From: a virus | Lineage: Duplodnaviria > Heunggongvirae > Uroviricota > Caudoviricetes | DNA length: 17,422 nt | IMG/VR virus record: IMGVR_UViG_2600255005_000002 | Strand: one strand, 5' to 3' | In this document: positions 1 through 17,422 of the stretch, piece by piece | How the letters are laid out: every line of letters starts with the position of its first letter | Numbering within the stretch: position 1 is the first letter of the stretch | Program-made: the position numbers and the translations under genes | The notes under the pieces: generated by a model | The model's input: the letters and a program-made list of their open reading frames with translations, nothing else | The model's database searches: none | What the model was told of the DNA's origin: nothing

Positions 1-1506
1 TTAGTAAGTACGAATCTTCGGCGGGAATGCCGGGCGCAGTTTCGGTTCCATGTTGACGCTACGTCGCGTCATGGATTCCGACTCTGGCAGATACAGGGAG
101 TGACACAGCCAGTTTTCATCATCACGCTCCGGGAAGTCGAAGCGGCTATGCGCGCCACGGCTTTCGGTACGGAAGTTGGCAGAAACAGCCGTTGCATACG
201 CCGTTTCCATCAGGTTATCCAGTTCCAGGCATTCAACGCGCTGGGTGTTGAACTCGCTGGAGGTGTCATCCAGACGGGCATTTTTCAGACGCTCGCGGAT
301 CACTTTCAACTGCTCAAGCCCTTTCGCCATCGCATCACCTTCACGGAAGACCGAGAAGTTATGCTGCATACATTCTTGCAGTGCTTTACGAATCGCCACC
401 GGATCTTCACCGTTACGGTTGTTGTTCCAGCGGTTCAGGCGCTCCAGAGAAGCTTCGACATCAGACTCGCTGGCATCGCGCAGTGCGCCCTGTTCGGCGA
501 TAGACTCTTGCAGATGCAGACCTGCCGCACGACCAAAGACCACCAGGTCCAGCAGCGAGTTGCCGCCAAGACGGTTAGCGCCGTGTACCGATACGCAAGC
601 AATTTCACCCACCGCGAACAGGCCAGGAATCACCACATCTTCGCCCTTCTCGTTCACGGTCAGCGCCTGCCCGGTCACTTTGGTCGGAATACCGCCCATC
701 ATGTAGTGACAGGTTGGGATAACCGGAATCGGCTCTTTCACCGGATCGACGTGAGCGAAGGTACGGGAGAGTTCAAGAATGCCCGGCAGACGGGATTCGA
801 GAACTTCTTTACCCAGGTGGTCGAGTTTCAGTTTTGCGTGTGGTCCCCACGGGCCATCACAGCCACGACCTTCACGAATTTCGATCATGATGGAACGCGC
901 CACCACATCACGCCCCGCCAGGTCTTTGGCGTTCGGCGCATAACGCTCCATAAAGCGTTCGCCATGTTTGTTCAGCAGATAACCGCCTTCACCACGGCAA
1001 CCCTCGGTGACCAGTACGCCCGCACCGGCAATACCCGTCGGGTGGAACTGCCACATTTCCATATCCTGCACCGGTACGCCTGCACGGATAGCCATGCCGA
1101 CGCCGTCGCCGGTGTTAATGTGGGCGTTGGTGGTGGACTGATAAATACGCCCTGCTCCGCCAGTCGCCAGCACGGTAGCGCGGGCTTTGAAATAAACCAC
1201 TTCACCGGTTTCGATGCACAGTGCGGTACAACCGACCACTGCGCCATCCTGGTTTTTCACCAGATCCAGCGCATACCACTCGGAGAAAATGGTGGTGTGG
1301 TTTTTCAGGTTCTGCTGATAAAGGGTGTGCAACAGTGCGTGACCGGTACGGTCAGCCGCTGCCGCTGTACGTGCCGCCTGCTCGCCGCCGAAGTTTTTCG
1401 ACTGACCGCCAAACGGACGTTGATAGATACGACCATCATCAAGGCGCGAGAACGGCAGTCCCATGTGTTCCAGTTCCAGAATCGCTTCCGGCCCGGTTTT
1501 ACACAA
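1..1506 (-). CDS. sdhA: Succinate dehydrogenase flavoprotein subunit, 5'-truncated fragment (C-terminal ~500 of 588 residues); reading frame broken at junction near 1505
   Basis: Minus-strand ORF translation ends ...[12 protein letters not shown] and contains the flavoprotein motifs ([21 protein letters not shown]) recognised as E. coli SdhA. The track start at 1506 is TTG at a position where SdhA has an internal Met (..YMCKTGPEA..), so the N-terminal ~87 residues are absent. Stop codon is at 1-3. Confidence 0.9.
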
Positions 1507-1512
1507 GAGTTA

Positions 1513-1911
1513 ATGGAATTGGCAAGTGAATTTTCTGGCATGCTTAAGTCGTCAGGTGTTCGGTCAGCGTTCTTTGTTGAAATGCTGATGCACGGCGGAC
1601 TTATGGCAACAATGAGACGTGTAATGGAAGACCAGAGAAAAGAACCTCCTCAGGTATACGTTTTGTCATCGAAGAAAACTGGGCTAACCAAAATTGGGTA
1701 TTCATCCAACATTCCACAACGCATCAAATCGCTTGGCAACTCTGGACCAGACTGCTTGAAGCTTGAGTGCCTGATCCCTGGTGGAAGAGAAACTGAAAAC
1801 ATGCTTCATCGCAAATTTGCCGCAAAGAGAAAGCACGGTGAATGGTTCGCCCTGTCCAAGGATGACATTGAGGGATTGAAATCTGTAGCGATTACTTCTG
1901 ATGGCTATTAA
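1513..1911 (+). CDS. T5orf172-type (GIY-YIG superfamily-like) small domain protein; start uncertain (ATG at 1513, 1603 or 1624)
   Basis: C-terminal 132 codons of track ORF 100..1911, the only part not antisense to sdhA. Sequence PQVYVLSSKKTGLTKIGYSSNIPQRIKSL...ENMLHRKFAAKRKHGEWFALS shows GIY(VYV)-x11-YIG(KIG) spacing, conserved Arg and Glu, and the terminal GEWF motif typical of T5orf172 domains. GGCGGA lies 3 nt before the ATG at 1603; only weak AAGAG precedes 1513. Confidence 0.6.
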   Translation: MELASEFSGMLKSSGVRSAFFVEMLMHGGLMATMRRVMEDQRKEPPQVYVLSSKKTGLTKIGYSSNIPQRIKSLGNSGPDCLKLECLIPGGRETENMLHRKFAAKRKHGEWFALSKDDIEGLKSVAITSDGY

Positions 1912-2425
1912 TGCTTGTTTAGAGCAATTTTCATAACAACTCTTCATTACAAAGCCCATTTACGGGTGGGCTTGATAATGAAACCGGAATTTATTCTGGG
2001 CCACCAGTTAACGGCAGTACCACGAAACAACCCAAGCCAGTAAGTGGAGAAATAACACCGGCAGCCACTGAAAGATGAACCTCCTGCCTTATGGCAAAAA
2101 AGATTCTTTGTGGTGGCGGACTGATGGAAAGACATCGGTTATTGCAGAGGCCATTCAATGAGTGGTCTCGACAATGGCTTATACCCTACACGGGATAACT
2201 TAACTGATATCCCTTTTAACGGATAAAGGTATTCAAGCCTGACACATCATGCGCTGTATCGTCGCTGTACTCTTGCATTAATTATGACTGTAGCCTGACG
2301 GGGAACTCCTTCTGCGCGAGTGTGCGGGAATAATCAAAAACGATGCACACCGGGGTTACCGGGTACACATATTTCATCATGCCAGCGAGTCCGGTTCTGG
2401 CGCGGAAGAAACCGGACGTTATGAT

Positions 2426-2836
2426 TTAGTGCGGAAATATTTGTGTAGTGTTCTGAATGTTCTCAGTAAATAGTAATGAATTATCAAAGGTATAGTAATA
2501 CCTTTTGTTTTCGTGGATATTTGTAACCCACCGAAAAACTCCTGCTTTAGCAAGGTTTCTTCTGTATTCCTGAAATGTGATCTCTCTGGATTTCAGCTTA
2601 TTAGAGGTCGTTTCTATAAGATGCCTATCCTTTGAAAATTTGACAGACACAATGTTTTTTAGGCCCTTTAATAACACTGTATTATCATTTTTTAATACAA
2701 TATGAACATTCTCTGTGGCTAAATAGTAAATGTAATGTGAGACATTGTGACGTTTTAGCTCAGAATAAAACCATTGATAGTTTAAATCGTTTCGAACTTT
2801 ATCAAATATTTGTTTAAAAATGACTACCTGATCCAT
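2426..2836 (-). CDS. Lambdoid right-arm accessory protein, DUF1398-like (YdfO/YbcV-family homolog); function unknown
   Basis: Minus-strand ORF (track 2426..2851, 141 aa). The internal ATG at 2834-2836 ([11 protein letters not shown]...) has a GGAAGG Shine-Dalgarno 7 nt upstream, whereas the first ATG at 2851 has none. AT-rich; resembles from memory the ORF in the last ~1 kb of lambda and its cryptic-prophage homologs. Confidence 0.6.
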
Positions 2837-2893
2837 AGATAAACCTTCCATGTGATATGAGGGGGCGTAGTCTGCACGATTATCTAAATTGCT

Positions 2894-3127
2894 TCAATCT
2901 GGTCTGACCTGTTTTCTGAGCAATTCAGTAATGTCACTCTTTTCTTTGTTTGCTTCAGGAGAAACTCTTTTTTCTGAGCACAGTCTCCGGCGGCAGGCTT
3001 CAATGACCCAGGCTGAGAAATTCCCGGACCCTTTTTGATCAAGAGCGATGTTAATTTGTTCAATCATTTGGTTAGGAAAGCGGATGTTGCGGGTTGTTGT
3101 TCTGCGGGTTCTGTTCTTCGTTGACAT
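2894..3127 (-). CDS. Small basic ribbon-helix-helix-like protein, DUF3950-like (YnfO/YlcI-family homolog of the lambda right-end ORF)
   Basis: 77-aa minus-strand ORF MSTKNRTRRTTTRNIRFPNQMIEQINIALDQKGSGNFSAWVIEACRRRL... The N-terminal ~50 residues match from memory the small ORF encoded just left of cos in lambda; the C-terminus diverges. Confidence 0.55.
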   Translation of the reverse strand: MSTKNRTRRTTTRNIRFPNQMIEQINIALDQKGSGNFSAWVIEACRRRLCSEKRVSPEANKEKSDITELLRKQVRPD

Positions 3128-3289
3128 GAGGTTGCCCTGTATTCAGTGTCGCTGATTTGTATTGTCTGAAGTTGTTTTTACGTTAAGTTGATGCAGATCA
3201 ATTAATACGATACCTGCGTCATAATTGATTATTTGACGTGGTTTGATGGCGTAGATGCACGTTGTGACATGTAGATGATAATTATTATC

Positions 3290-3510
3290 ATTTTGCGGGT
3301 CCTTTCCGGCGATCCGACAGGTTACGGGGCGGCGACCTCGCGGGTTTTCGCTATTTATGAAAATTTTCCGGTTTAAGGCGTTTCCGTTCTTCTTCGTCGT
3401 AACTTAATGTTTTTATTTAAAATACCCCCTGAAAAGAAAGGAAACGACAGGTGCTGAAAACGAACTTTTGGGCCTCTGTCGTTTCCTTTCTCTGTTTTTG
3501 TCCGTGGAAT
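3290..3510 (+). promoter_or_regulatory. cos: Lambda-type cos site (cosQ - cosN - cosB with Nu1/IHF binding elements), present as a joined circular-form junction
   Basis: Sequence ...GATCCGACAGGTTACG|GGGCGGCGACCTCGCGGGTTTTCGCTATTTATGAAAATTTTCCGG... reproduces the lambda right-end/left-end junction. It lies immediately upstream of Nu1 and includes the 14-bp inverted repeat AAAGGAAACGACAG (3437-3450) / CTGTCGTTTCCTTT (3476-3489). Confidence 0.85.
3327..3338 (+). promoter_or_regulatory. cosN: cosN 12-nt cohesive-end sequence GGGCGGCGACCT (terminase nicking site)
   Basis: Exact 12-mer GGGCGGCGACCT at 3327-3338, flanked by the characteristic GTTACG and CGCGGG. Confidence 0.85.
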
Positions 3511-3515
3511 GAACA

Positions 3516-4034
3516 ATGGAAGTCAACAAAAAGCAGCTGGCTGACATTTTCGGTGCGAGCATCCGTACCATTCAGAACTGGCAGGAGCAGGGAATGCCCG
3601 TTCTGCGAGGTGGCGGGAAGGGTAATGAGGTGCTTTATGACTCTGCCGCCGTCTAAAATGGTATGCCGAAAGGGATGCTGAAATTGAGAACGAAAAGCTG
3701 CGCCGGGAGGTTGAAGAACTGCGGCAGGCCAGCGAGACAGATCTGCAGCCAGGGACTATTGAGTACGAACGCCATCGACTTACGCGTGCGCAGGCCGACG
3801 CACAGGAGCTGAAAAATGCCAGAGACTCCGCTGAAGTGGTGGAAACCGCATTCTGTACTTTCGTGCTGTCGCGGATCGCAGGTGAAATTGCCAGTATTCT
3901 CGACGGGATCCCCCTGTCGGTGCAGCGGCGTTTTCCGGAACTGGAAAACCGACATGTTGATTTCCTGAAACGGGATATCATCAAAGCCATGAACAAAGCA
4001 GCCGCGCTGGATGAACTGATACCGGGGTTGCTGA

Positions 4035-4060
<26 letters not shown>
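3516..4060 (+). pseudogene. Nu1: Terminase small subunit Nu1, disrupted by a -1 frameshift at about 3651-3656 (premature TAA at 3654)
   Basis: ATG at 3516 gives MEVNKKQLADIFGASIRTIQNWQEQGMPVLRGGGKGNEVLYDSAAV then stop. The remainder (KWYAERDAEIENEKL...SEYIEQSG, ending at 4060) continues in another frame. Window has GTCTAAAATGG where lambda (from memory) has GTCATAAAATGG. Confidence 0.85.
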
Positions 4061-7740
<3,680 letters not shown>

Positions 7741-7760
<20 letters not shown>

Positions 7761-9056
7761 TCTCCCGCATATTGCCAGTATGGCCTTTAATGAGCCGCTT
7801 ATGCGCGGGTTTTCTTTTGTGCGCTTGCAGGCCAGCTTGGGATCAGCCGCCTGACGGATGCGGTGTCCGGCGACAGCCTGACTGCCCAGGAGGCACTCGC
7901 GACGCTGGCATTATCCGGTGATGATGACGGACCACGACAGGCCCGCAGTTATCAGGTCATGAACGGCATCGCCGTGCTGCCGGTGTCCGGCACGCTGGTC
8001 AGCCGGACGCGGGCGCTGCAGCCGTATTCGGGGATGACCGGTTACAACGGCATTATCGCCCGTCTGCAACAGGCTGCCAGCGACCCGATGGTGGACGGCA
8101 TTCTGCTCGATATGGACACGCCAGGCGGAATGGTGGCGGGAGCATTTGACTGCGCTGACATCATTGCCCGTGTGCGTGACATAAAACCGGTATGGGCGCT
8201 GGCCAACGATATGAACTGCAGTGCAGGTCAGCTGCTTGCCAGTGCCGCCTCCCGGCGTCTGGTCACGCAGACCGCCCGGACAGGCTCCATCGGCGTCATG
8301 ATGGCTCACAGTAATTACGGTGCTGCGCTGGAGAAACAGGGTGTGGAAATCACGCTGATTTACAGCGGCAGCCATAAGGTGGATGGCAACCCCTACAGCC
8401 ATCTTCCGGATGACGTCCGGGAGACACTGCAGTCCCGGATGGATGCAACCCGCCGGATGTTTGCGCAGAAGGTGTCGGCATATACCGGCCTGTCTGTGCA
8501 GGCTGTGCTGGATACAGAGGCTGCAGTGTACAGCGGTCAGGAGGCCATTGATGCCGGACTGGCTGATGAACTTGTCAACAGCACCGATGCGATCACCGTT
8601 ATGCGTGATGCACTGGATGCACGTAAATCCCGTCTCTCAGGAGGGCGAATGACCAAAGAGACTCAATCAACAACTGTTTCAGCCACCGCTTCGCAGGCTG
8701 ACGTTACTGACGTGGTGCCAGCTACGGAGGGCGAAAACGCCAGCGCGGCGCAGCCGGACGTGAACGCGCAGATCACCGCAGCGGTTGCGGCAGAAAACAG
8801 CCGCATTATGGGGATCCTCAACTGTGAGGAGGCTCACGGACGCGAAGAACAGGCGCGCGTTCTGGCAGAAACCCCCGGAATGACCGTGGAAACGGCCCGC
8901 CGCATTCTGGCCGCAGCACCACAGAGTGCACAGGCGCGCAGTGACACTGCGCTGGATCGTCTGATGCAGGGTGCACCGGCACCGCTGGCTGCAGGTAACC
9001 TGGCATCTGATACCAATAAAGAATTACTTAATACACCTGAAGCTTTACCGGTATAA
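7741..9056 (+). pseudogene. C: Prohead protease/scaffold gpC, N-terminus disrupted by a ~16-bp deletion at about 7799-7800; downstream frame open
   Basis: GTG at 7741 gives MTAELRNLPHIASMAFNEPLM then diverges, with a stop at 7852-7854. The C sequence resumes in frame 0 (ARVFFCALAGQLGIS..SGDSLTAQEALATLALSGDDDGPRQ...). Window has GAGCCGCTTATGCGCGGG where lambda (from memory) has GAGCCGCTGATGCTTGAACCCGCCTATGCGCGGG. Confidence 0.75.
8439..9056 (+). CDS. Nu3: Scaffolding protein Nu3 (in-frame internal start within C), apparently intact
   Basis: ATG at 8439 (MDATRRMFAQKVSAYTGLSVQ...) is in the downstream C frame, which is uninterrupted to the stop at 9054-9056. C-terminus (..AAGNLASDTNKELLNTPEALPV) differs from lambda. 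Confidence 0.5.
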   Translation: MDATRRMFAQKVSAYTGLSVQAVLDTEAAVYSGQEAIDAGLADELVNSTDAITVMRDALDARKSRLSGGRMTKETQSTTVSATASQADVTDVVPATEGENASAAQPDVNAQITAAVAAENSRIMGILNCEEAHGREEQARVLAETPGMTVETARRILAAAPQSAQARSDTALDRLMQGAPAPLAAGNLASDTNKELLNTPEALPV

Positions 9057-9065
9057 GAGGCAGTT

Positions 9066-9398
9066 ATGGCGTCAAAAGAAGAGTTTAACCATTACCAGCC
9101 GCTGGGTAACAGTGATCCGGCTCATACAGCAATTGCGCCTGGCGGATTGAGTGCGAAAACGCCTGCAATGACCCCGCTGATGCTGGATGGCACTACCCGT
9201 AAGCTGGTTGTGTGGGATGGCACCACCGACGGTGCAGCCGTTGGCATTCTGGCGGTTGCTGCTGACCAGACCAGCACCACACTGACGTTCTACAAGTCCG
9301 GCTCGTTCCGTTATGAGGATGTGCTCTGGCCGGAGGCTGCCAGCGACGAGACTAAAAAACGGACCGCGTTTGCCGGAACGGCAATCAGCATCGTTTAA
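9066..9398 (+). CDS. D: Head decoration protein gpD (110 aa), divergent allele
   Basis: 110-aa [44 protein letters not shown]...FAGTAISIV; same length as lambda gpD with scattered substitutions; ATG preceded by AAGAGG. Confidence 0.9.
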
Positions 9399-9415
9399 TC
9401 TTCCCCTTCATCAAC

Positions 9416-9440
9416 AAAGGCCGCCTGTGCGGCTTTTTTT
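9416..9440 (+). terminator. Rho-independent terminator-like hairpin between D and E (GCCGC-CTGT-GCGGC followed by T7)
   Basis: AAAGGCCGCCTGTGCGGCTTTTTTT: 5-bp GC stem, 4-nt loop, seven T residues. Probably a partial terminator or mRNA-stability element, since E must be co-transcribed. Confidence 0.4.
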
Positions 9441-9453
9441 ATGGAAATAATTT

Positions 9454-10479
9454 ATGTCTGTATATACAACTGCAGAATTACTGGCATCGACCCAGCATCA
9501 CTTTAAGTTCGATCCGCTGTTTCTGCGTCTCTTTTTCCGTGAAACCTATCCTTTCACCACGGAAAAAGTCTATCTCTCACAAATTCCGGGACTGGTAAAC
9601 ATGGCGCTGTACGTTTCGCCGATTGTTTCCGGTGAGGTTATCCGATCCCGTGGCGGCTCCACCTCTGAATTTACGCCGGGTTATGTCAAGCCGAAGCATG
9701 AGGTGAATCCGCAGATGACCCTGCGTCGCCTGCCGGATGAAGATCCGCAGAACCTGGCTGACCCGGCTTACCGTCGTCGCCGTATTATTCGGCAGAATAT
9801 GCTGGATGAAAATCTGGCGATTGCCCAGGTCGAAGAGATGCAGGCAGTTTCTGCCGTGCTTAAGGGCAAATACACCATGACCGGTGAAGCCTTCGATCCG
9901 GTTGAGGTGGATATGGGCCGCAGTGCGGCGAATAACATCACGCAGTCCGGCGGCACGGAGTGGAGCAAGCGTGACAAGTCCACGTATGACCCGACCGACG
10001 ATATCGAAGCCTACGCGCTGAACGCCAGCGGTGTGGTGAATATCATCGTGTTTGATCCGAAAGGCTGGGCGCTGTTCCGTTCCTTCAAGGCCGTCAAGGA
10101 GAAGCTGGATACCCGTCGCGGCTCTCATTCCGAGCTGGAGACAGCGGTAAAAGACCTGGGCAAAGCGGTGTCTTATAAGGGAATGTATGGCGATGTGGCC
10201 ATCGTCGTGTATTCCGGACAGTACGTGGAAAACGGCGTCAAAAAGAACTTCCTGCCGGACAACACGATGGTGCTGGGGAACACTCAGGCACGCGGTCTGC
10301 GCACCTATGGTTGCATTCAGGATGCGGACGCACAGCGCGAAGGCATTAACGCCTCTGCCCGTTACCCGAAAAACTGGGTGACCACCGGCGACCCGGCGCG
10401 TGAGTTCACCATGATTCAGTCAGCACCGCTGATGCTGCTGGCTGACCCTGATGAGTTCGTGTCCGTACAACTGGCGTAA
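9454..10479 (+). CDS. E: Major capsid protein gpE (341 aa)
   Basis: 341-aa ORF MSVYTTAELLASTQHHFKFDPLFLRLFFRETYPFTTEKVYLSQIPGLVNMALYVSPIVSGE...; same length as lambda gpE; N-terminal residues differ from lambda (from memory). Confidence 0.95.
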   Translation: MSVYTTAELLASTQHHFKFDPLFLRLFFRETYPFTTEKVYLSQIPGLVNMALYVSPIVSGEVIRSRGGSTSEFTPGYVKPKHEVNPQMTLRRLPDEDPQNLADPAYRRRRIIRQNMLDENLAIAQVEEMQAVSAVLKGKYTMTGEAFDPVEVDMGRSAANNITQSGGTEWSKRDKSTYDPTDDIEAYALNASGVVNIIVFDPKGWALFRSFKAVKEKLDTRRGSHSELETAVKDLGKAVSYKGMYGDVAIVVYSGQYVENGVKKNFLPDNTMVLGNTQARGLRTYGCIQDADAQREGINASARYPKNWVTTGDPAREFTMIQSAPLMLLADPDEFVSVQLA

Positions 10480-10481
10480 TC

Positions 10482-10510
10482 ATGGCCCTTCGGGGCCATT
10501 TTCTCTCTGT
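10482..10510 (+). terminator. Hairpin downstream of E (ATGGCCC-TTCG-GGGCCAT followed by TTTCTCTCTG)
   Basis: Perfect 7-bp inverted repeat with a 4-nt loop at 10482-10499 followed by a pyrimidine/T-rich run, directly after the E stop codon and before the FI ribosome-binding site. Confidence 0.35.
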
Positions 10511-10520
10511 GGAGGAGTCC

Positions 10521-10916
10521 ATGACGAAAGATGAACTGATTGCCCGTCTCCGCTCGCTGGGTGAACAACTGAACCGTGATATCAGCCTGACGGGGACGAA
10601 AGAAGAACTGGCGCTCCGTGTGGCAGAGCTGGAAGAAGAGCTTGATGACACGGGCGACACTGCCGGTCAGGATACCCCTCTCAGCCCGGAAAATGTGCTG
10701 ACCGGACATGAAAATGAGGTTGTATCAGCGCAGCCGGATACCGTGACTGATACGGCTGATCTGGTCACGGTTGTGGCACTGGTGACGCTGCATACTGATG
10801 CACTTCACGCCACGCGGGATGAGGCTGTGGCATTTGTGCTGCCGGGAACGGCGTTTCGTGTCTCTGCCGGTGTGGCAGCCGAAATGACAGAGCGCGGCCT
10901 GGCCAGAATGCAATAA
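10521..10916 (+). CDS. FI: DNA-packaging / head assembly protein gpFI (131 aa)
   Basis: ATG at 10521 preceded by GGAGGAG; MTKDELIARLRSLGEQLNRD...ERGLARMQ. One codon shorter than lambda FI, with a substitution cluster in the middle. Confidence 0.85.
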   Translation: MTKDELIARLRSLGEQLNRDISLTGTKEELALRVAELEEELDDTGDTAGQDTPLSPENVLTGHENEVVSAQPDTVTDTADLVTVVALVTLHTDALHATRDEAVAFVLPGTAFRVSAGVAAEMTERGLARMQ

Positions 10917-10927
10917 CGGGAGGCGCT

Positions 10928-11281
10928 GTGGCTGATTTCGATAACCTGTTCGATGCTGCCATTGCCCGCGCCGATGAAACGATACGCGGGTACATGGGAA
11001 CGTCAGCCACCATGACATCCGGTGAGCAGTCCGGCGCAGTAATACGTGGTGTTTTTGATGACCCTGAAAATATCAGCTATGCCGGACAGGGCGTGCGCGT
11101 TGAAGGCTCCAGCCCGTCCCTGTTTGTCCGGACTGATGAGGTGCGGCAGCTGCGGCGTGGAGACACGCTGACCATCGGTGAGGAAAATTTCTGGGTAGAT
11201 CGGGTTTCGCCGGATGATGGCGGAAGTTGTCATCTCTGGCTTGGACGGGGCGTACCGCCTGCCGTTAACCGTCGCCGCTGA
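10928..11281 (+). CDS. FII: Head-tail connector protein gpFII (117 aa, GTG start)
   Basis: MADFDNLFDAAIARADETIRGYMGTSATMTSGEQSGAVIRGVFDDPENISYAGQGVRVEG...; GTG start preceded by GGGAGG. Confidence 0.85.
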   Translation: MADFDNLFDAAIARADETIRGYMGTSATMTSGEQSGAVIRGVFDDPENISYAGQGVRVEGSSPSLFVRTDEVRQLRRGDTLTIGEENFWVDRVSPDDGGSCHLWLGRGVPPAVNRRR

Positions 11282-11292
11282 AAGGGGGATGT

Positions 11293-11871
11293 ATGGCCAT
11301 AAAAGGTCTTGAGCAGGCCGTTGAAAACCTCAGCCGTATCAGCAAAACGGCGGTGCCTGGTGCCGCCGCAATGGCCATTAACCGCGTTGCTTCATCCGCG
11401 ATATCGCAGTCTGCGTCACAGGTTGCCCGTGAGACAAAGGTACGCCGGAAACTGGTAAAGGAAAGGGCCAGGCTGAAAAGAGCCACGGTCAAAAATCCGC
11501 AGGCCAGAATCAAAGTTAACCGGGGGGATTTGCCCGTAATCAGGCTGGGTAATGCGCGGGTTGTCCTGTCCCGCCGCAGGCGTCGTAAAAAGGGGCAGCG
11601 TTCATCCCTGAAAGGTGGCGGCAGCGTGCTTGTGGTGGGTAACCGTCGTATTCCCGGCGCGTTTATTCAGCAACTGAAAAATGGCCGGTGGCATGTTATG
11701 CAGCGTGTGGCCGGGAAAAACCGTTACCCCATTGATGTGGTGAAAATCCCGATGGCGGTGCCGCTGACCACGGCGTTTAAACAGAATATTGAACGGATAC
11801 GGCGTGAACGTCTTCCGAAAGAGCTGGGCTATGCGCTGCAGCATCAACTGAGAATGGTAATAAAGCGATGA
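11293..11871 (+). CDS. Z: Tail completion protein gpZ (192 aa)
   Basis: MAIKGLEQAVENLSRISKTAVPGAAAMAINRVASSAISQSASQVARETKVRRKL...; ATG preceded by AAGGGGGAT; overlaps U start (ATGA). Confidence 0.9.
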   Translation: MAIKGLEQAVENLSRISKTAVPGAAAMAINRVASSAISQSASQVARETKVRRKLVKERARLKRATVKNPQARIKVNRGDLPVIRLGNARVVLSRRRRRKKGQRSSLKGGGSVLVVGNRRIPGAFIQQLKNGRWHVMQRVAGKNRYPIDVVKIPMAVPLTTAFKQNIERIRRERLPKELGYALQHQLRMVIKR

Positions 11872-12263
11872 AACATACTGAACTCCGTGCAGCCGTACTG
11901 GATGCACTGGAGAAGCATGACACCGGGGCGACGCTTTTTGATGGTCGCCCCGCTGTTTTTGATGAGGAAGATTTTCCGGCAATTGCCGTTTATCTCACCG
12001 GCGCTGAATACACGGGCGAAGAGCTGGACAGCGATACCTGGCAGGCGGAGCTGCATATTGAAGTTTTCCTGCCTGCTCAGGTGCCGGATTCAGAGCTGGA
12101 TTCGTGGATGGAGTCCCGGATTTATCCGGTGATGAGCGATATCCCGGCACTGTCAGATTTGATCACCAGTATGGTGGCCAGTGGCTATGACTACCGGCGC
12201 GACGATGATGCGGGCCTGTGGAGTTCAGCCGATCTGACTTATGTCATTACCTATGAAATGTGA
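11868..12263 (+). CDS. U: Tail terminator protein gpU (131 aa)
   Basis: [56 protein letters not shown]... Confidence 0.9.
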
Positions 12264-12270
12264 GGACGAT

Positions 12271-13011
12271 ATGCCTGTACCAAATCCAGCAATACCGGTG
12301 AAAGGTGCCGGAACCACCCTGTGGGTTTATAACGGGAGCGGCGACCCTTATGCAAACCCGCTTTCAGACGTTGACTGGTCGCGTCTGGCTAAAGTTAAAG
12401 ACCTGACGCCCGGCGAACTGACCGCTGAGTCCTATGACGACAGCTATCTCGATGATGAAGATGCAGACTGGACTGCGACCGGACAGGGGCAGAAATCTGC
12501 CGGAGATACCAGCTTCACGCTGGCGTGGATGCCCGGAGAGCAGGGGCAGCAGGCGCTGCTGGCGTGGTTTAATGAAGGCGATACCCGTGCCTATAAAATC
12601 CGCTTCCCGAACGGCACGGTCGATGTGTTCCGTGGCTGGGTCAGCAGTATCGGTAAGGCGGTGACGGCGAAGGAAGTGATCACCCGCACGGTGAAAGTCA
12701 CCAATGTGGGACGTCCGTCGATGGCAGAAGATCGCAGCACGGTAACAGCGGCAACCGGCATGACCGTGACGCCTGCCAGCACCTCGGTGGTGAAAGGGCA
12801 GAGCACCACGCTGACCGTGGCATTCCAGCCGGAAGGCGCAACCGACAAGAGCTTCCGTGCGGTGTCTGCGGATAAAACAAAAGCCACCGTGTCGGTCAGT
12901 GGTATGACCATCACCGTGAAAGGTGTTGCTGCAGGCAAGGTCAACATTCTGGTCGTATCCGGTAATGGTGAACTTGCTGCGGTTGCAGAAATCAACGTCA
13001 CCGCCAGTTAA
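12271..13011 (+). CDS. V: Major tail tube protein gpV (246 aa) with C-terminal Ig-like domain
   Basis: ATG at 12271 ([30 protein letters not shown]...) preceded by GAGGACG. The track ORF begins 10 codons upstream at an ATG lacking a ribosome-binding site. C-terminal ~90 residues are Thr/Val-rich and Ig-like. Confidence 0.9.
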
Positions 13012-13026
13012 TCCGGAGAGTCAGCG

Positions 13027-13449
13027 ATGTTCCTGAAAACCGAATCATTTGAACATAACGGTGTGACCGTCACGCTTTCTGAACTGTCAGCCCTGCAGCG
13101 TATTGAGCATCTCGCCCTGATGAAACGACAGGCAGAACAGGCGGAGTCAGACAGCAACCGGAAGTTTACTGTGGAAGACGCCATCAGAACCGGCGCTTTT
13201 GTGGTGGCGATGTCCCTGTGGCATAACCATCCGCAGAAGACAAAGCTGCCTTCCATGAATGAAGCCGTTAAACAGATTGAGCAGGAAGTGCTTACCACCT
13301 GGCCCACGGAGGCAATTTCTCATGCTGAAAACGTGGTGTACCGGCTGTCCGGTATGTATGAGTTTGTGGTGAATGATGCTCCTGAACAGGCAGATGACGC
13401 CGGGCCTGCAGAGCCTGTTTCTGCGGGAAAGTGTTCGACGGTGAGCTGA
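13027..13449 (+). CDS. G: Tail assembly chaperone gpG (140 aa)
   Basis: MFLKTESFEHNGVTVTLSELSALQRIEHLALMKRQAEQAESDSNRKF...PVSAGKCSTVS; ATG preceded by GGAGAG. Confidence 0.9.
   Translation: MFLKTESFEHNGVTVTLSELSALQRIEHLALMKRQAEQAESDSNRKFTVEDAIRTGAFVVAMSLWHNHPQKTKLPSMNEAVKQIEQEVLTTWPTEAISHAENVVYRLSGMYEFVVNDAPEQADDAGPAEPVSAGKCSTVS
13425..13431 (+). promoter_or_regulatory. Programmed -1 ribosomal frameshift slippery heptamer G GGA AAG producing the G-T fusion
   Basis: GGGAAAG at 13425-13431 near the 3' end of G, arranged X XXY YYZ in the G frame. The -1 frame continues directly into the T reading frame (FDGELSFALKLAREMG...). Confidence 0.7.
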
Positions 13450-13865
13450 GTTTTGCCCTGAAACTGGCGCGTGAGATGGGGCGACCCGACTGGCGTGCCA
13501 TGCTTGCCGGGATGTCATCCACGGAGTATGCCGACTGGCACCGCTTTTACAGTACCCATTATTTTCATGATGTTCTGCTGGATATGCACTTTTCCGGGCT
13601 GACATATACCGTGCTCAGCCTGTTTTTCAGCGATCCGGATATGCATCCGCTGGATTTCAGTCTGCTTAACCGGCGTGAGGCTGACGAAGAGCCTGAAGAT
13701 GATGTGCTGATGCAGAAAGCGGTAGGGCTTGCCGGAGGCGTTCGTTTTGGCCCGGACGGGAAAGAAGTTATCCCCGCTTCCCCGGATGTAGCGGACATGA
13801 CGGAGGATGACGTAATGCTGATGACAGTATCAGAAGGGATCGCAGGAGGAGTCCGGTATGGCTGA
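13431..13865 (+). CDS. T: gpT portion of the tail assembly chaperone, expressed as the G-T fusion by -1 frameshifting (fusion spans 13027-13865)
   Basis: Frame-0 ORF of 144 codons (..FDGELSFALKLAREMGRPDWRAMLAGMSSTEYADWHRFYSTHYFHDVLL...), with no independent ATG or ribosome-binding site; begins at the slippery site and ends at the TGA overlapping the H start. Confidence 0.8.
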   Translation: MFDGELSFALKLAREMGRPDWRAMLAGMSSTEYADWHRFYSTHYFHDVLLDMHFSGLTYTVLSLFFSDPDMHPLDFSLLNRREADEEPEDDVLMQKAVGLAGGVRFGPDGKEVIPASPDVADMTEDDVMLMTVSEGIAGGVRYG

Positions 13866-16419
13866 ACCGGTAGGCGATCTGGTCGTTGATTTAAGTCTGG
13901 ATGCGGCCAGATTTGACGAGCAGATGGCCAGAGTCAGGCGTCATTTTTCCGGTACGGAAAGTGATGCGAAAAAAACAGCGGCAGTCGTTGAACAGTCGAT
14001 GAACCGGCAGGCGCTGGCTGCACAGAAAGCGGGGATTTCCGTCGGGCAGTATAAAGCCGCCATGCGTATGCTGCCTGCACAGTTCACCGACGTGGCCACG
14101 CAGCTTGCAGGCGGGCAAAGTCCGTGGCTGATCCTGCTGCAACAGGGGGGTCAGGTGAAGGACTCCTTCGGCGGGATGATCCCCATGTTCCGGGGGCTTG
14201 CCGGTGCGATCACCCTGCCGATGGTCGGGGCCACCTCGCTGGCGGTGGCGACCGGTGCGCTGGCGTATGCCTGGTATCAGGGCAACTCAACCCTGTCCGA
14301 TTTCAACAAAACGCTGGTTCTTTCCGGCAATCAGTCGGGGCTGACGGCAGATCGTATGCTGGTCCTGTCCAGAGCCGGGCAGGCGGCAGGGCTGACGTTT
14401 AACCAGACCAGCGAGTCACTCAGCGCACTGGTTAAGGCGGGGGTAAGCGGTGAGGCTCAGATTGCGTCCATCAGCCAGAGTGTGGCGCGTTTCTCTTCTG
14501 CATCCGGCGTGGAGGTGGACAAGGTCGCTGAAGCCTTCGGGAAGCTGACCACTGACCCGACGTCGGGGCTGACGGCGATGGCGCGCCAGTTCCATAACGT
14601 GACGGCGGAGCAGATTGCGTATGTTGCTCAGTTGCAGCGTTCCGGCGATGAAGCCGGGGCATTGCAGGCGGCGAACGAGGCCGCAACGAAAGGGTTTGAT
14701 GACCAGACCCGACGCCTGAAAGAGAACATGGGCACGCTGGAAACCTGGGCAGACAGGACAGCACGGGCATTCAAATCCATGTGGGATGCGGTGCTGGATA
14801 TTGGTCGTCCTGATACCGCTCAGGAGATGCTGATTAAGGCAGAGGCTGCGTTTAAGAAAGCGGACGACATCTGGAATCTGCGCAAGGATGATTATTTTGT
14901 TAACGATGAAGCGCGGGCGCGTTACTGGGATGACCGTGAAAAGGCCCGTCTTGCGCTTAAAGCCGCCCGAAAGAAGGCTGAACAGCAGAGTCAACAGGAC
15001 AAAAATGCGCAGCAGCAGAGCGATACCGAAGCGTCACGGCTGAAATATACCGAAGAGGCGCAGAAGGCTTACGAACGGCTGCAGACACCGCTGGAGAAAT
15101 ATACCGCCCGTCAGGAAGAACTGAACAAGGCACTGAAAGACGGGAAAATCCTGCAGGCAGATTACAACACGCTGATGGCGGCGGCGAAAAAGGATTATGA
15201 AGCGACGCTGAAAAAGCCGAAACAGTCCGGCGTGAAGGTGTCTGCGGGCGATCGTCAGGAAGACAGTGCTCATGCTGCCCTGCTGACGCTTCAGGCAGAA
15301 CTCCGGACGCTGGAGAAGCATGCCGGAGCGAATGAGAAAATCAGCCAGCAGCGCCGGGATTTGTGGAAGGCGGAAAATCAGTTCGCGGTACTGGAGGAGG
15401 CGGCACAACGTCGCCAGCTATCCGCACAGGAGAAATCCCTGCTGGCGCATAAAGATGAGACGCTGGAGTACAAACGCCAGCTGGCTGTACTTGGCGATAA
15501 GGTCACGTATCAGGAGCACCTGAATGCGCTGGCGCAGCAGGCGGATAAGTTCGCACAGCAACAACGGGCAAAACGGGCAGCCATTGAGGCGAAAAACCGG
15601 GGGCTTACTGACCGGCAGGCAGCGCGGGAAGCCACAGAACAGCGCCTGAAGGAACAGTATGGCGATAATTCGCTGGCGCTGAATAACGTCATGTCAGAGC
15701 AGAAAAAGACCTGGGCGGCTGAAGACCAGCTTCGCGGGAGCTGGATGGCAGGCCTCAAGTCCGGCTGGAGTGAGTGGGAAGAGAGCGCCACGGACAGTAT
15801 GTCGCAGGTTAAAAGTGCAGCCACGCAGACCTTTGATGGTATTGCGCAGAATATGGCGGCGATGCTGACCGGCAGTGAACAGAACTGGCGCAGCTTCACC
15901 CGCTCCGTGCTGTCCATGATGACAGAAATTCTGCTTAAGCAGGCAATGGTGGGGATTGTCGGGAGTATCGGCAGCGCCATTGGCGGGGCTGTTGGTGGCG
16001 GCGCATCAGCGTCAGGCGGTACAGCCATTCAGGCAGCTGCGGCGAAATTCCATTTTGCGACCGGAGGATTTACGGGAACCGGCGGCAAATATGAGCCAGC
16101 GGGGATTGTTCACCGTGGTGAATTTGTCTTCACTAAGGAGGCAACCAGCCGGATTGGCGTGGGGAATCTCTACCGGCTGATGCGCGGCTATGCCACCGGC
16201 GGTTATGTCGGTACACCGGGCAGCATGGCGGACAGCCGCTCGCAGGCGTCCGGGAAGTTTGAGCAGAATAACCATGTGGTGATTAACAACGACGGCACGA
16301 ACGGTCAGATAGGGCCACAGGCGCTGAAGGCGGTTTATGACGTAGCCCGTAAGGCGGCAATGGATGTTGTGACCGGGCAGATGCGCGATGGTGGTCTGTT
16401 CTCCGGAGGTGGACGATGA
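13858..16419 (+). CDS. H: Tail tape measure protein gpH (853 aa)
   Basis: 853-aa ORF MAEPVGDLVVDLSLDAARFDEQMARVRRHFSGTESDAKKTAAVVEQS..., with a long central coiled-coil-like Ala/Gln/Lys/Glu-rich region and C-terminal Gly-rich segment; same length as lambda gpH. Confidence 0.95.
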   Translation: MAEPVGDLVVDLSLDAARFDEQMARVRRHFSGTESDAKKTAAVVEQSMNRQALAAQKAGISVGQYKAAMRMLPAQFTDVATQLAGGQSPWLILLQQGGQVKDSFGGMIPMFRGLAGAITLPMVGATSLAVATGALAYAWYQGNSTLSDFNKTLVLSGNQSGLTADRMLVLSRAGQAAGLTFNQTSESLSALVKAGVSGEAQIASISQSVARFSSASGVEVDKVAEAFGKLTTDPTSGLTAMARQFHNVTAEQIAYVAQLQRSGDEAGALQAANEAATKGFDDQTRRLKENMGTLETWADRTARAFKSMWDAVLDIGRPDTAQEMLIKAEAAFKKADDIWNLRKDDYFVNDEARARYWDDREKARLALKAARKKAEQQSQQDKNAQQQSDTEASRLKYTEEAQKAYERLQTPLEKYTARQEELNKALKDGKILQADYNTLMAAAKKDYEATLKKPKQSGVKVSAGDRQEDSAHAALLTLQAELRTLEKHAGANEKISQQRRDLWKAENQFAVLEEAAQRRQLSAQEKSLLAHKDETLEYKRQLAVLGDKVTYQEHLNALAQQADKFAQQQRAKRAAIEAKNRGLTDRQAAREATEQRLKEQYGDNSLALNNVMSEQKKTWAAEDQLRGSWMAGLKSGWSEWEESATDSMSQVKSAATQTFDGIAQNMAAMLTGSEQNWRSFTRSVLSMMTEILLKQAMVGIVGSIGSAIGGAVGGGASASGGTAIQAAAAKFHFATGGFTGTGGKYEPAGIVHRGEFVFTKEATSRIGVGNLYRLMRGYATGGYVGTPGSMADSRSQASGKFEQNNHVVINNDGTNGQIGPQALKAVYDVARKAAMDVVTGQMRDGGLFSGGGR

Positions 16420-16745
16420 AAACCTTCCGCTGGAAAGTGAAACCCGGTATGGATGTGGCTTCGGCCCCTTCCGTAAGAAAGGTGCGCTTTGGTGATGGCT
16501 ATTCTCAGCGAGCGCCTGCCGGGCTGAATGCCGACCTGAAAACGTACAGCGTGACGCTTTCTGTTCCCCGTTGGGAGGCCACGGCGCTTGAGTCGTTTCT
16601 GGCTGAGCACGGGGGCTGGAAATCCTTTCTGTGGACGCCGCCTTATGAGTGGCGGCAGATAAAGGTGACCTGCGCAAAATGGTCGTCGCGGGTCAGTATG
16701 CTGCGTGTTGAGTTCAGCGCAGAGTTTGAACAGGTGGTGAACTGA
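16416..16745 (+). CDS. M: Minor tail protein gpM (109 aa)
   Basis: MKTFRWKVKPGMDVASAPSVRKVRFGDGYSQRAPAGLNADLKTYSVTLSV...; ATGA overlap with the H stop. Confidence 0.9.
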   Translation: MKTFRWKVKPGMDVASAPSVRKVRFGDGYSQRAPAGLNADLKTYSVTLSVPRWEATALESFLAEHGGWKSFLWTPPYEWRQIKVTCAKWSSRVSMLRVEFSAEFEQVVN

Positions 16746-17422
16746 TGCAGGATATCCGGCAGGAAACACTGAATGAATGCACCCGTGCGGAGCAGTCGGC
16801 CAGCGTGGTGCTCTGGGAAATCGATCTGACAGAGGTCGGTGGAGAACGTTATTTTTTCTGTAATGAGCAGAACGAAAAAGGTGAGCCGGTCACCTGGCAG
16901 GGGCGACAGTATCAGCCGTATCCCATTCAGGGGAGCGGTTTTGAACTGAATGGCAAAGGCACCAGTACGCGCCCCACGCTGACGGTCTCTAACCTGCACG
17001 GCATGGTCACCGGTATGGCGGAAGACCTGCAGAGTCTGGTCGGCGGAACGGTGGTCCGGCGTAAGGTTTACGCCCGTTTTCTGGATGCGGTGAACTTCGT
17101 TAACGGAAACAGCGACGCCGATCCGGAGCAGGAGGTGATCAGCCGCTGGCGCATCGAACAGTGCAGCGAACTGAGCGCGGTGAGTGCCTCTTTTGTACTG
17201 TCCACGCCGACTGAAACGGATGGTGCTGTTTTTCCGGGGCGCATCATGCTGGCTAATACCTGCACCTGGACCTATCGCGGTGATGAGTGCGGTTATCACG
17301 GTCCGGCTGCAAATTGTATTCTGCCGGAGCAGAAAGCAATTAACGTTTGGAGAACTGCGGACGACGACGTGCTTTACGCAGACCGACTTTCTTACGTTCA
17401 ACCTGACGAGCGTCACGAGTAA
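16745..17422 (+). CDS. L: Minor tail protein gpL, 3'-truncated: L-derived sequence ends at about 17297-17310, after which the open frame reads through antisense rpsI sequence to the window end
   Basis: MQDIRQETLNECTRAEQSASVVLWEIDLTEVGGERYFFCNEQNEKGEPVTWQGRQYQPYPIQGSGFELNGKG...CTWTYRGDECGY matches lambda gpL (232 aa in lambda). The following residues (HGPAANCILPEQKAINVWRTADDDV...) are not L; no stop codon within the window. Confidence 0.75.
   Translation: MQDIRQETLNECTRAEQSASVVLWEIDLTEVGGERYFFCNEQNEKGEPVTWQGRQYQPYPIQGSGFELNGKGTSTRPTLTVSNLHGMVTGMAEDLQSLVGGTVVRRKVYARFLDAVNFVNGNSDADPEQEVISRWRIEQCSELSAVSASFVLSTPTETDGAVFPGRIMLANTCTWTYRGDECGYHGPAANCILPEQKAINVWRTADDDVLYADRLSYVQPDERHE
17340..17422 (-). 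CDS. rpsI: 30S ribosomal protein S9, 3' end only (last 26 codons plus stop); gene continues beyond the window
   Basis: Minus-strand translation of 17343-17420 is TRDARQVERKKVGLRKARRRPQFSKR followed by TAA (17340-17342), identical to the C-terminus of E. coli S9 as remembered. Confidence 0.8.
   Translation of the reverse strand, partial: TRDARQVERKKVGLRKARRRPQFSKR

Follow-up and report, generated by a model that had tools for sequence, protein, structure and literature searches.

The prophage map of a lambdoid phage is a circular permutation of its virion map, so cos always lies joined in the interior of a prophage. The closest described site is that of bacteriophage lambda, in which the highly conserved cosQ is 7 bp long (PMC4669245), I2 extends over bp 18-50 and is required at an early packaging step (PMC4856287), R3 occupies bp 50-65, and R1 and R2 have one 16-mer in common (PMC9026076). 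Cos-type terminases need a second, downstream cos to finish packaging, and from a lone prophage cos they produce a filled head with protruding DNA and no tail, which is not infectious (PMC4669245, PMC6687093). Partial lambda prophages have also been described, such as MF713, delta[gal-attL-cI-S]-cos-head/tail-attR, which serves as a passive substrate for packaging by a helper (PMC4669245).

The cos examined here lies in a stretch of 17,422 nt, hereafter the window, that is 100% identical to GCA_000208585.2 (AEMF01000001.1), a record reached through an exact match to gpH; the gpA protein is too widespread to single it out. The AEMF record is that of TW11588, a soil strain of cryptic clade IV, now Escherichia ruysiae (PMC7716201, PMC12446263). 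We are highly confident that this cos is the normal site of a lambda-like temperate phage, present in its joined prophage form in TW11588. Its unusual surroundings are probably the product of joined contig ends.

A complete, joined lambda-type cos spans 3297-3491, and Nu1 starts at 3516. Its leftmost element is the 7-mer GGGTCCT (3297-3303, plus strand), identical to that of lambda and at the same spacing to cosN, which we take to be cosQ, the subsite of packaging termination. The cohesive-end 12-mer of cosN, GGGCGGCGACCT (3327-3338, plus strand), is an exact match and the sole copy in the window, in which 0.15 matches with at most one mismatch would be expected by chance, and it is the same in all eight aligned sequences. 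Terminase would be expected to nick the top strand at 3326/3327 and the bottom strand at 3338/3339, the whole cosN of approximately 22 bp covering about 3322-3343, and it is at 3326/3327 that right-end lambda sequence ending in CCGACAGGTTACG meets left-end sequence beginning with GGGCGGCGACCTCGCGGG. The I2 spacer, a bend segment of A/T tracts (3344-3376, plus strand; lambda bp 18-50), and the TerS-binding site R3, AGGCGTTTCCGTTCTT (3376-3391, plus strand; lambda bp 50-65), are both identical to lambda. Between R3 and R2 lies the I1 region, a predicted IHF-binding and bend site whose extent is approximate (3400-3417, minus strand). It was recognized by consensus, the best matches to WATCAANNNNTTR on the minus strand being at 3405-3417 (one mismatch) and 3400-3412 (two mismatches), and it is identical to lambda, the nearest substitutions on either side being at 3399 and 3428. 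The two remaining TerS-binding sites are exact matches to the 16-mer CTGTCGTTTCCTTTCT, inverted in R2 (3435-3450, minus strand) and direct in R1 (3476-3491, plus strand), and together they form an inverted repeat.

The order R3-I1-R2-R1 with R2 inverted is the one by which the lambda complex cosB is defined (PMC9026076), and the spacing between cosN and cosB is likewise that of lambda, with bp 1-72 and 74-101 identical and no indels. At the level of sequence, every feature that characterizes the lambda complex-cosB class is present. The classical lambda reference has one extra G near bp 138, which would offset the published coordinates to the right of R2 by one. Numbering that begins with the first base of the cohesive end puts the Nu1 ATG at bp 190 both here and in the DE3 and PV340536 lambda records, against bp 191 in PMC9026076.

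The same anatomy bears on whether the site could instead belong to a phage-inducible chromosomal island (PICI), an element that takes over the terminase of a helper phage. The cosQ and cosN of PICIs are nearly identical to those of lambda, but a PICI cos is without R repeats and has an rpp gene next to it on the downstream side (PMC9026076). The site described here has all three R sequences, and it is followed by Nu1, A and a head-tail module and not by rpp, an arrangement that rules out a PICI cos and leaves us giving this origin practically no credence.

For alignment we used DE3, a lambda derivative with an annotated cos, together with one lambda record. Against these references there were no indels across 3240-3530 and eight substitutions within 3290-3515 (at 3291, 3295, 3310, 3399, 3428, 3460, 3464 and 3470), none of which falls inside cosQ, cosN, I2, R3, R2 or R1. 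The sequence-only reading had described the right and left ends of lambda as contiguous at this place, with cosQ, cosN and the cosB repeats followed by Nu1, and this description was borne out, since the mismatches in cosN or in R1-R3 that it had named as counter-evidence are absent from the alignment of 3290-3515. All eight substitutions also occur in deposited phages (PhiR26_1, PhiR34_1, PhiR42_1, PhiR49_1 and Kati), and the window has no private base within 3280-3520. The 195-bp core from cosQ to R1 is identical to that of phage PhiR49_1 (PV340568.1), to that of a prophage locus (L014) that has every called gene from Nu1 through T at full length, and, at 100% identity, to those of the E. coli prophages of GmM066, GCA_026721005.1 and GCA_964046125.1. 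Because the core is identical both to PhiR49_1 and to an intact prophage, we infer that this cos would be cut and packaged by a lambda-specific terminase. The PhiR phages may have been propagated lytically, as their GenBank host fields suggest.

Joined cos sites of this type are very common. With 3290-3516 as the query, a joined cos was found in 4,591 of 5,426 complete E. coli genomes (85%), with a median of two and a maximum of eight matches per genome, many of them annotated beside nohD or small-terminase genes. The lambdoid loci that we fetched, whether intact or degraded, all keep cosQ and cosN, and most keep the three R sites; the departures amount to a handful of single-nucleotide changes in R3 or R1 and, at one locus, a loss of register past R3. 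The sequence-only reading was right to see a circular or prophage arrangement rather than virion ends, as the cos is joined and the DNA chromosomal. This is, however, the normal state of any lambdoid prophage and already known biology, and a textbook feature that is present in most E. coli genomes carries little biological weight.

The exact 42-mer from cosQ to cosN is also found in records of non-enteric organisms (L039-L042, L045, L046, L049, L052-L054). They include Shewanella (a 48,542-bp contig at approximately 1x coverage), Oceanobacillus, Neobacillus, Leeuwenhoekiella, Raphidiopsis, an Alicyclobacillus 'plasmid' and several metagenome-assembled genomes. These records most likely reflect contamination by lambda control DNA or by cosmid vectors.

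The terminase genes to the right of the site are also those of lambda. The first 46 residues of Nu1, the small terminase subunit (3516-4060, plus strand), contain the DNA-binding helix-turn-helix and are 100% identical to lambda Nu1. Since these residues and the R sites are both identical to those of lambda, the packaging specificity should be that of lambda rather than that of phage 21 or N15. A, the large terminase gene (4035-5960, plus strand), is intact and encodes 641 aa that are 99.8% identical to DE3 gpA; an identical protein is recorded in 3,587 collection blocks. How the site would work is taken from lambda (PMC4669245, PMC4856287, PMC9026076). Induction, followed by concatemer formation, would precede cleavage of cos. 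Nu1 dimers would occupy R3 and R2 on either side of the bend that IHF introduces at I1, R1 serving as an accessory site, and the bound Nu1 would position gpA to nick cosN 12 bases apart. The DNA would be pumped rightward into the prohead, from Nu1 towards the tail genes, and packaging would be ended by the cosQ and cosN of the next cos.

To the left of cos, the phage DNA (1506-3296) is 100% identical to the annotated prophage of E. coli GmM066. It starts 83 nt inside a GIY-YIG nuclease gene, which is thereby truncated at its 5′ end (1506-1911, plus strand), and continues through a DUF1398 gene (2426-2851, minus strand) and a YlcI/YnfO gene (2894-3127, minus strand), both within the GmM066-identical segment. 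The sequence-only reading had remarked on the absence of S, R, Rz and bor upstream of cos, and indeed no homologues are found there. The phage-derived sequence, however, extends just 1.8 kb to the left of cosN before it breaks off abruptly against sdhA, a length that in lambda would take one no farther than bor. The start of the phage DNA at 1506 is the sole reason why S, R and Rz are missing, and in the closest relatives the lysis cassette lies immediately to the left of the GIY-YIG gene (L018). As for bor, phages of this lineage have the GIY-YIG gene in its place, a case of mosaic variation and not of loss.

There are no substitutions between the window and GmM066 (L001) over 1506-3599, nor between the window and GCA_026721005.1 (L018) over 1506-7203. 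The phage DNA of these two E. coli strains matches 1506-7203 and 13868-15424 with zero substitutions; in both, B is fused to H by a deletion from 7203 to 13868, and the phage DNA is joined to Mu-like baseplate genes. The GmM066 prophage is located at an e14-like site beside an icd fragment. This degree of identity indicates that the phage was probably shared between E. coli and E. ruysiae very recently.

Downstream of A, tblastn with DE3 proteins identified W, B, C, D, E, FI, FII, Z, U, V, G, T, H, M and a truncated L (5957-17308, plus strand), the last of which is cut at codon 188. The slippery heptamer GGGAAAG, at which -1 frameshifting is programmed in the tail assembly chaperone genes G/T of lambda, is present in the G-T overlap (13425-13431). 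Three genes near cos carry indels. Nu1 has a 1-bp deletion after 3653 that leads to a stop after 46 codons, so that tblastn splits it into two frames; B has lost 1 bp after 6408 (GGGTCTTTTTT to GGGCTTTTTT); and C has lost 16 bp after 7794 (CCGCTGATGCTTGAAC) between 5-bp direct repeats, CCGCT. The Nu1 indel was defined against L018, with zero substitutions over 5.7 kb, and those in B and C against prophages that are 99.85% identical, among which L022 has three substitutions over 13.4 kb. Three indels against zero to three substitutions is an excess of indels, which suggests errors. The C deletion, by contrast, looks like genuine replication slippage and not a base-calling error.

No independent support for the Nu1, B or C indel was found in the other assemblies and contigs compared, and three candidates for such support were rejected. 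A 135-aa B product in L027, a contig of Logan accession SRR32022218, arises from a different 1-bp deletion: this contig, from an unrelated public run, is 1% divergent, and at about its position 1614 GGGTC has become GGTC, one to two bases away from 6408. The B site may be a deletion hotspot, or both records may contain errors. A 397-aa C product occurs in L037, a contig that does not have the 16-bp deletion. The 46-aa Nu1 product is common for other reasons. It occurs in 422 collection blocks, and many contigs (L031-L035) stop, or gain approximately 0.9-1.2 kb of extra DNA, just after nt 137 of Nu1, which suggests a common insertion, possibly an IS, at this position in other lambdoid prophages.

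A concern about everything that surrounds the site is the way in which the record was put together. The lambdoid phage DNA (1506-17308, 15.8 kb) is bluntly joined to the 3′ 1,505 nt of sdhA on its left (1-1505, minus strand) and, on its right, where it ends in L, to the downstream spacer and last 83 nt of rpsI (17309-17422, minus strand). The retained sdhA has no internal stop and is 96.7% identical to that of E. coli, third codon positions accounting for 47 of the 49 differences, and this identity, together with 93.2% for the right flank, fits an origin in E. ruysiae. At the left junction (1505/1506), sdhA meets the GIY-YIG gene without a single bp of microhomology. At the right junction (17308/17309), with one shared bp, a G, codon 188 of L meets the spacer 31 nt downstream of the rpsI stop; this is about the position of the E. 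coli rpsI terminator hairpin, which is absent here, and the chimeric L' ORF of 225 aa ends at the last base of the window. Beyond the window the gene order is normal on both sides, with sdhB, sucABCD and then cydA to the left, and rplM, zapE, zapG, degQ, degS, mdh and argR to the right. The two loci joined, sdhA and rpsI, are far apart on the E. coli map, going by their K-12 positions. About 1.9 kb to the right of the window, the chromosomal gene zapE is interrupted by 2 bp that E. coli does not have (L023, 15224-15225), a hint either of real pseudogenes or of an assembly generally prone to indels.

Our results suggest a simple explanation for these odd surroundings, which is that they arose from spacerless contig joins in a draft pseudo-chromosome, together with assembly errors or very recent mutations. 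The source record is a single contig of 4.46 Mb from a short-read project of about 2011, and a strain listed beside TW11588, with a WGS prefix in the same range, has a contig numbered 533 (PMC12446263). Set against that number, one gap-free contig of 4.46 Mb makes it probable that both junctions are concatenated contig ends. Both junctions cut inside genes, and the part of sdhA that was kept shows divergence of the purifying-selection type and no decay. It is likely that contigs were concatenated without spacers and that 1506-17308 represents one contig of 15.8 kb. Some real gene decay may be present as well, as the slippage repeats in C and the insertion in zapE would allow.

The alternative is that the record is correct and that TW11588 carries a 15.8-kb, doubly truncated lambdoid remnant between sdhA' and the rpsI region. 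Such a remnant might, for example, be filler at one end of a large chromosomal inversion; its Nu1, B and C would be inactivated and its cos a relic that stayed intact. Neither junction contains Ns, the sequence running through without a break, and a simple inversion would produce at one of its junctions the order seen here, sucA-sdhB-sdhA' inverted and then rpsI-rplM forward. The direct repeats that flank the C deletion are typical of slippage, and the nearby zapE is likewise split. However, two blunt junctions and three indels alongside zero substitutions in 5.7 kb and three in 13.4 kb make an odd mutational spectrum, the retained part of sdhA shows no decay, and a gap-free contig of 4.46 Mb is implausible for a short-read project of 2011 (PMC12446263). 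The truncated SdhA and chimeric L' products were found in no other assembly, and the left junction had no match in the GTDB species-representative genomes, which do not include the source strain. We therefore regard a real remnant as unlikely, though it deserves more weight than any other alternative to the joining of contig ends.

The structurally defective state that the sequence-only reading ascribed to the element is accordingly not established, because a single draft record of 2011 is the only source for both junctions and perhaps for the three frameshifts too. The traits that make the site look interesting can be traced to the abrupt joins and indels of that one old record, and for any finding made from it the quality of the assembly should be checked first.

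If the remnant were real, its cos would be a passive leftover at which a lambda-specific helper could nick the DNA and begin packaging. An N15-specific helper also packages lambda DNA (PMC4669245), and in a truly defective element a helper of either specificity could start packaging here. The proposal that such an element might still be packaged in trans stands to this extent: a lambda-specific helper should start at this cos, but the high-frequency transduction of linked markers that was offered as a test is not to be expected (PMC4669245, PMC6687093). No second cosN was found in the 9 kb available to the right, and from a single cos stalled, tailless particles would be expected in place of high-frequency transduction. 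With only one cos, even a fully functional site would be expected to give a negative result in a helper-transduction test.

It is also conceivable that a lone cos was kept because it is useful. As a decoy, it would draw off terminase from superinfecting lambda-type phages, part of whose output would then be tailless particles that lead nowhere; as a launch site, it would mobilize the chromosome on the rpsI side whenever the cos of a second prophage lay within a headful downstream. In favour of such a role, the site shows perfect preservation beside three broken genes, a helper squanders resources when it packages from the cos of a prophage (PMC4669245), and degraded prophages elsewhere also keep cos (L012, L013, L015). 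Yet the element is almost identical to intact prophages, which leaves no time for selection to show, and an unchanged site of 200 bp is what would be expected by default. The broken genes may themselves be artefacts, and the launch version lacks a second cosN in the downstream DNA available. A useful cos strikes us as very improbable.

Compared with the cos of bacteriophage lambda, the site has the same subsite sequences, order, orientation and spacing, and Nu1 and A follow in both; the differences are the eight spacer substitutions, all of them known from other deposited phages, and the 1-bp deletion in Nu1. The prophages of E. coli GmM066, GCA_026721005.1 and GCA_964046125.1 and phage PhiR49_1 differ in that their copies have an intact Nu1, and the three prophages also differ in host, which is E. 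coli for them and E. ruysiae here. The degraded E. coli prophages beside cusS (L012, L013, L015) likewise carry a joined lambda-type cos next to a Nu1 homologue. We take this cusS-side position to be that of K-12 DLP12, with nohD, annotations of which adjoin cos in the E. coli matches. The cusS-side remnants are long established and found in many strains, whereas the element described here is known from a single draft record and may be no remnant at all. Its layout, with the DNA to the left of cos deleted and cos and the head-tail genes kept, is that of MF713, but prophages of the MF713 type are laboratory constructs, from which phage is obtained only if a second cos has been inserted downstream.
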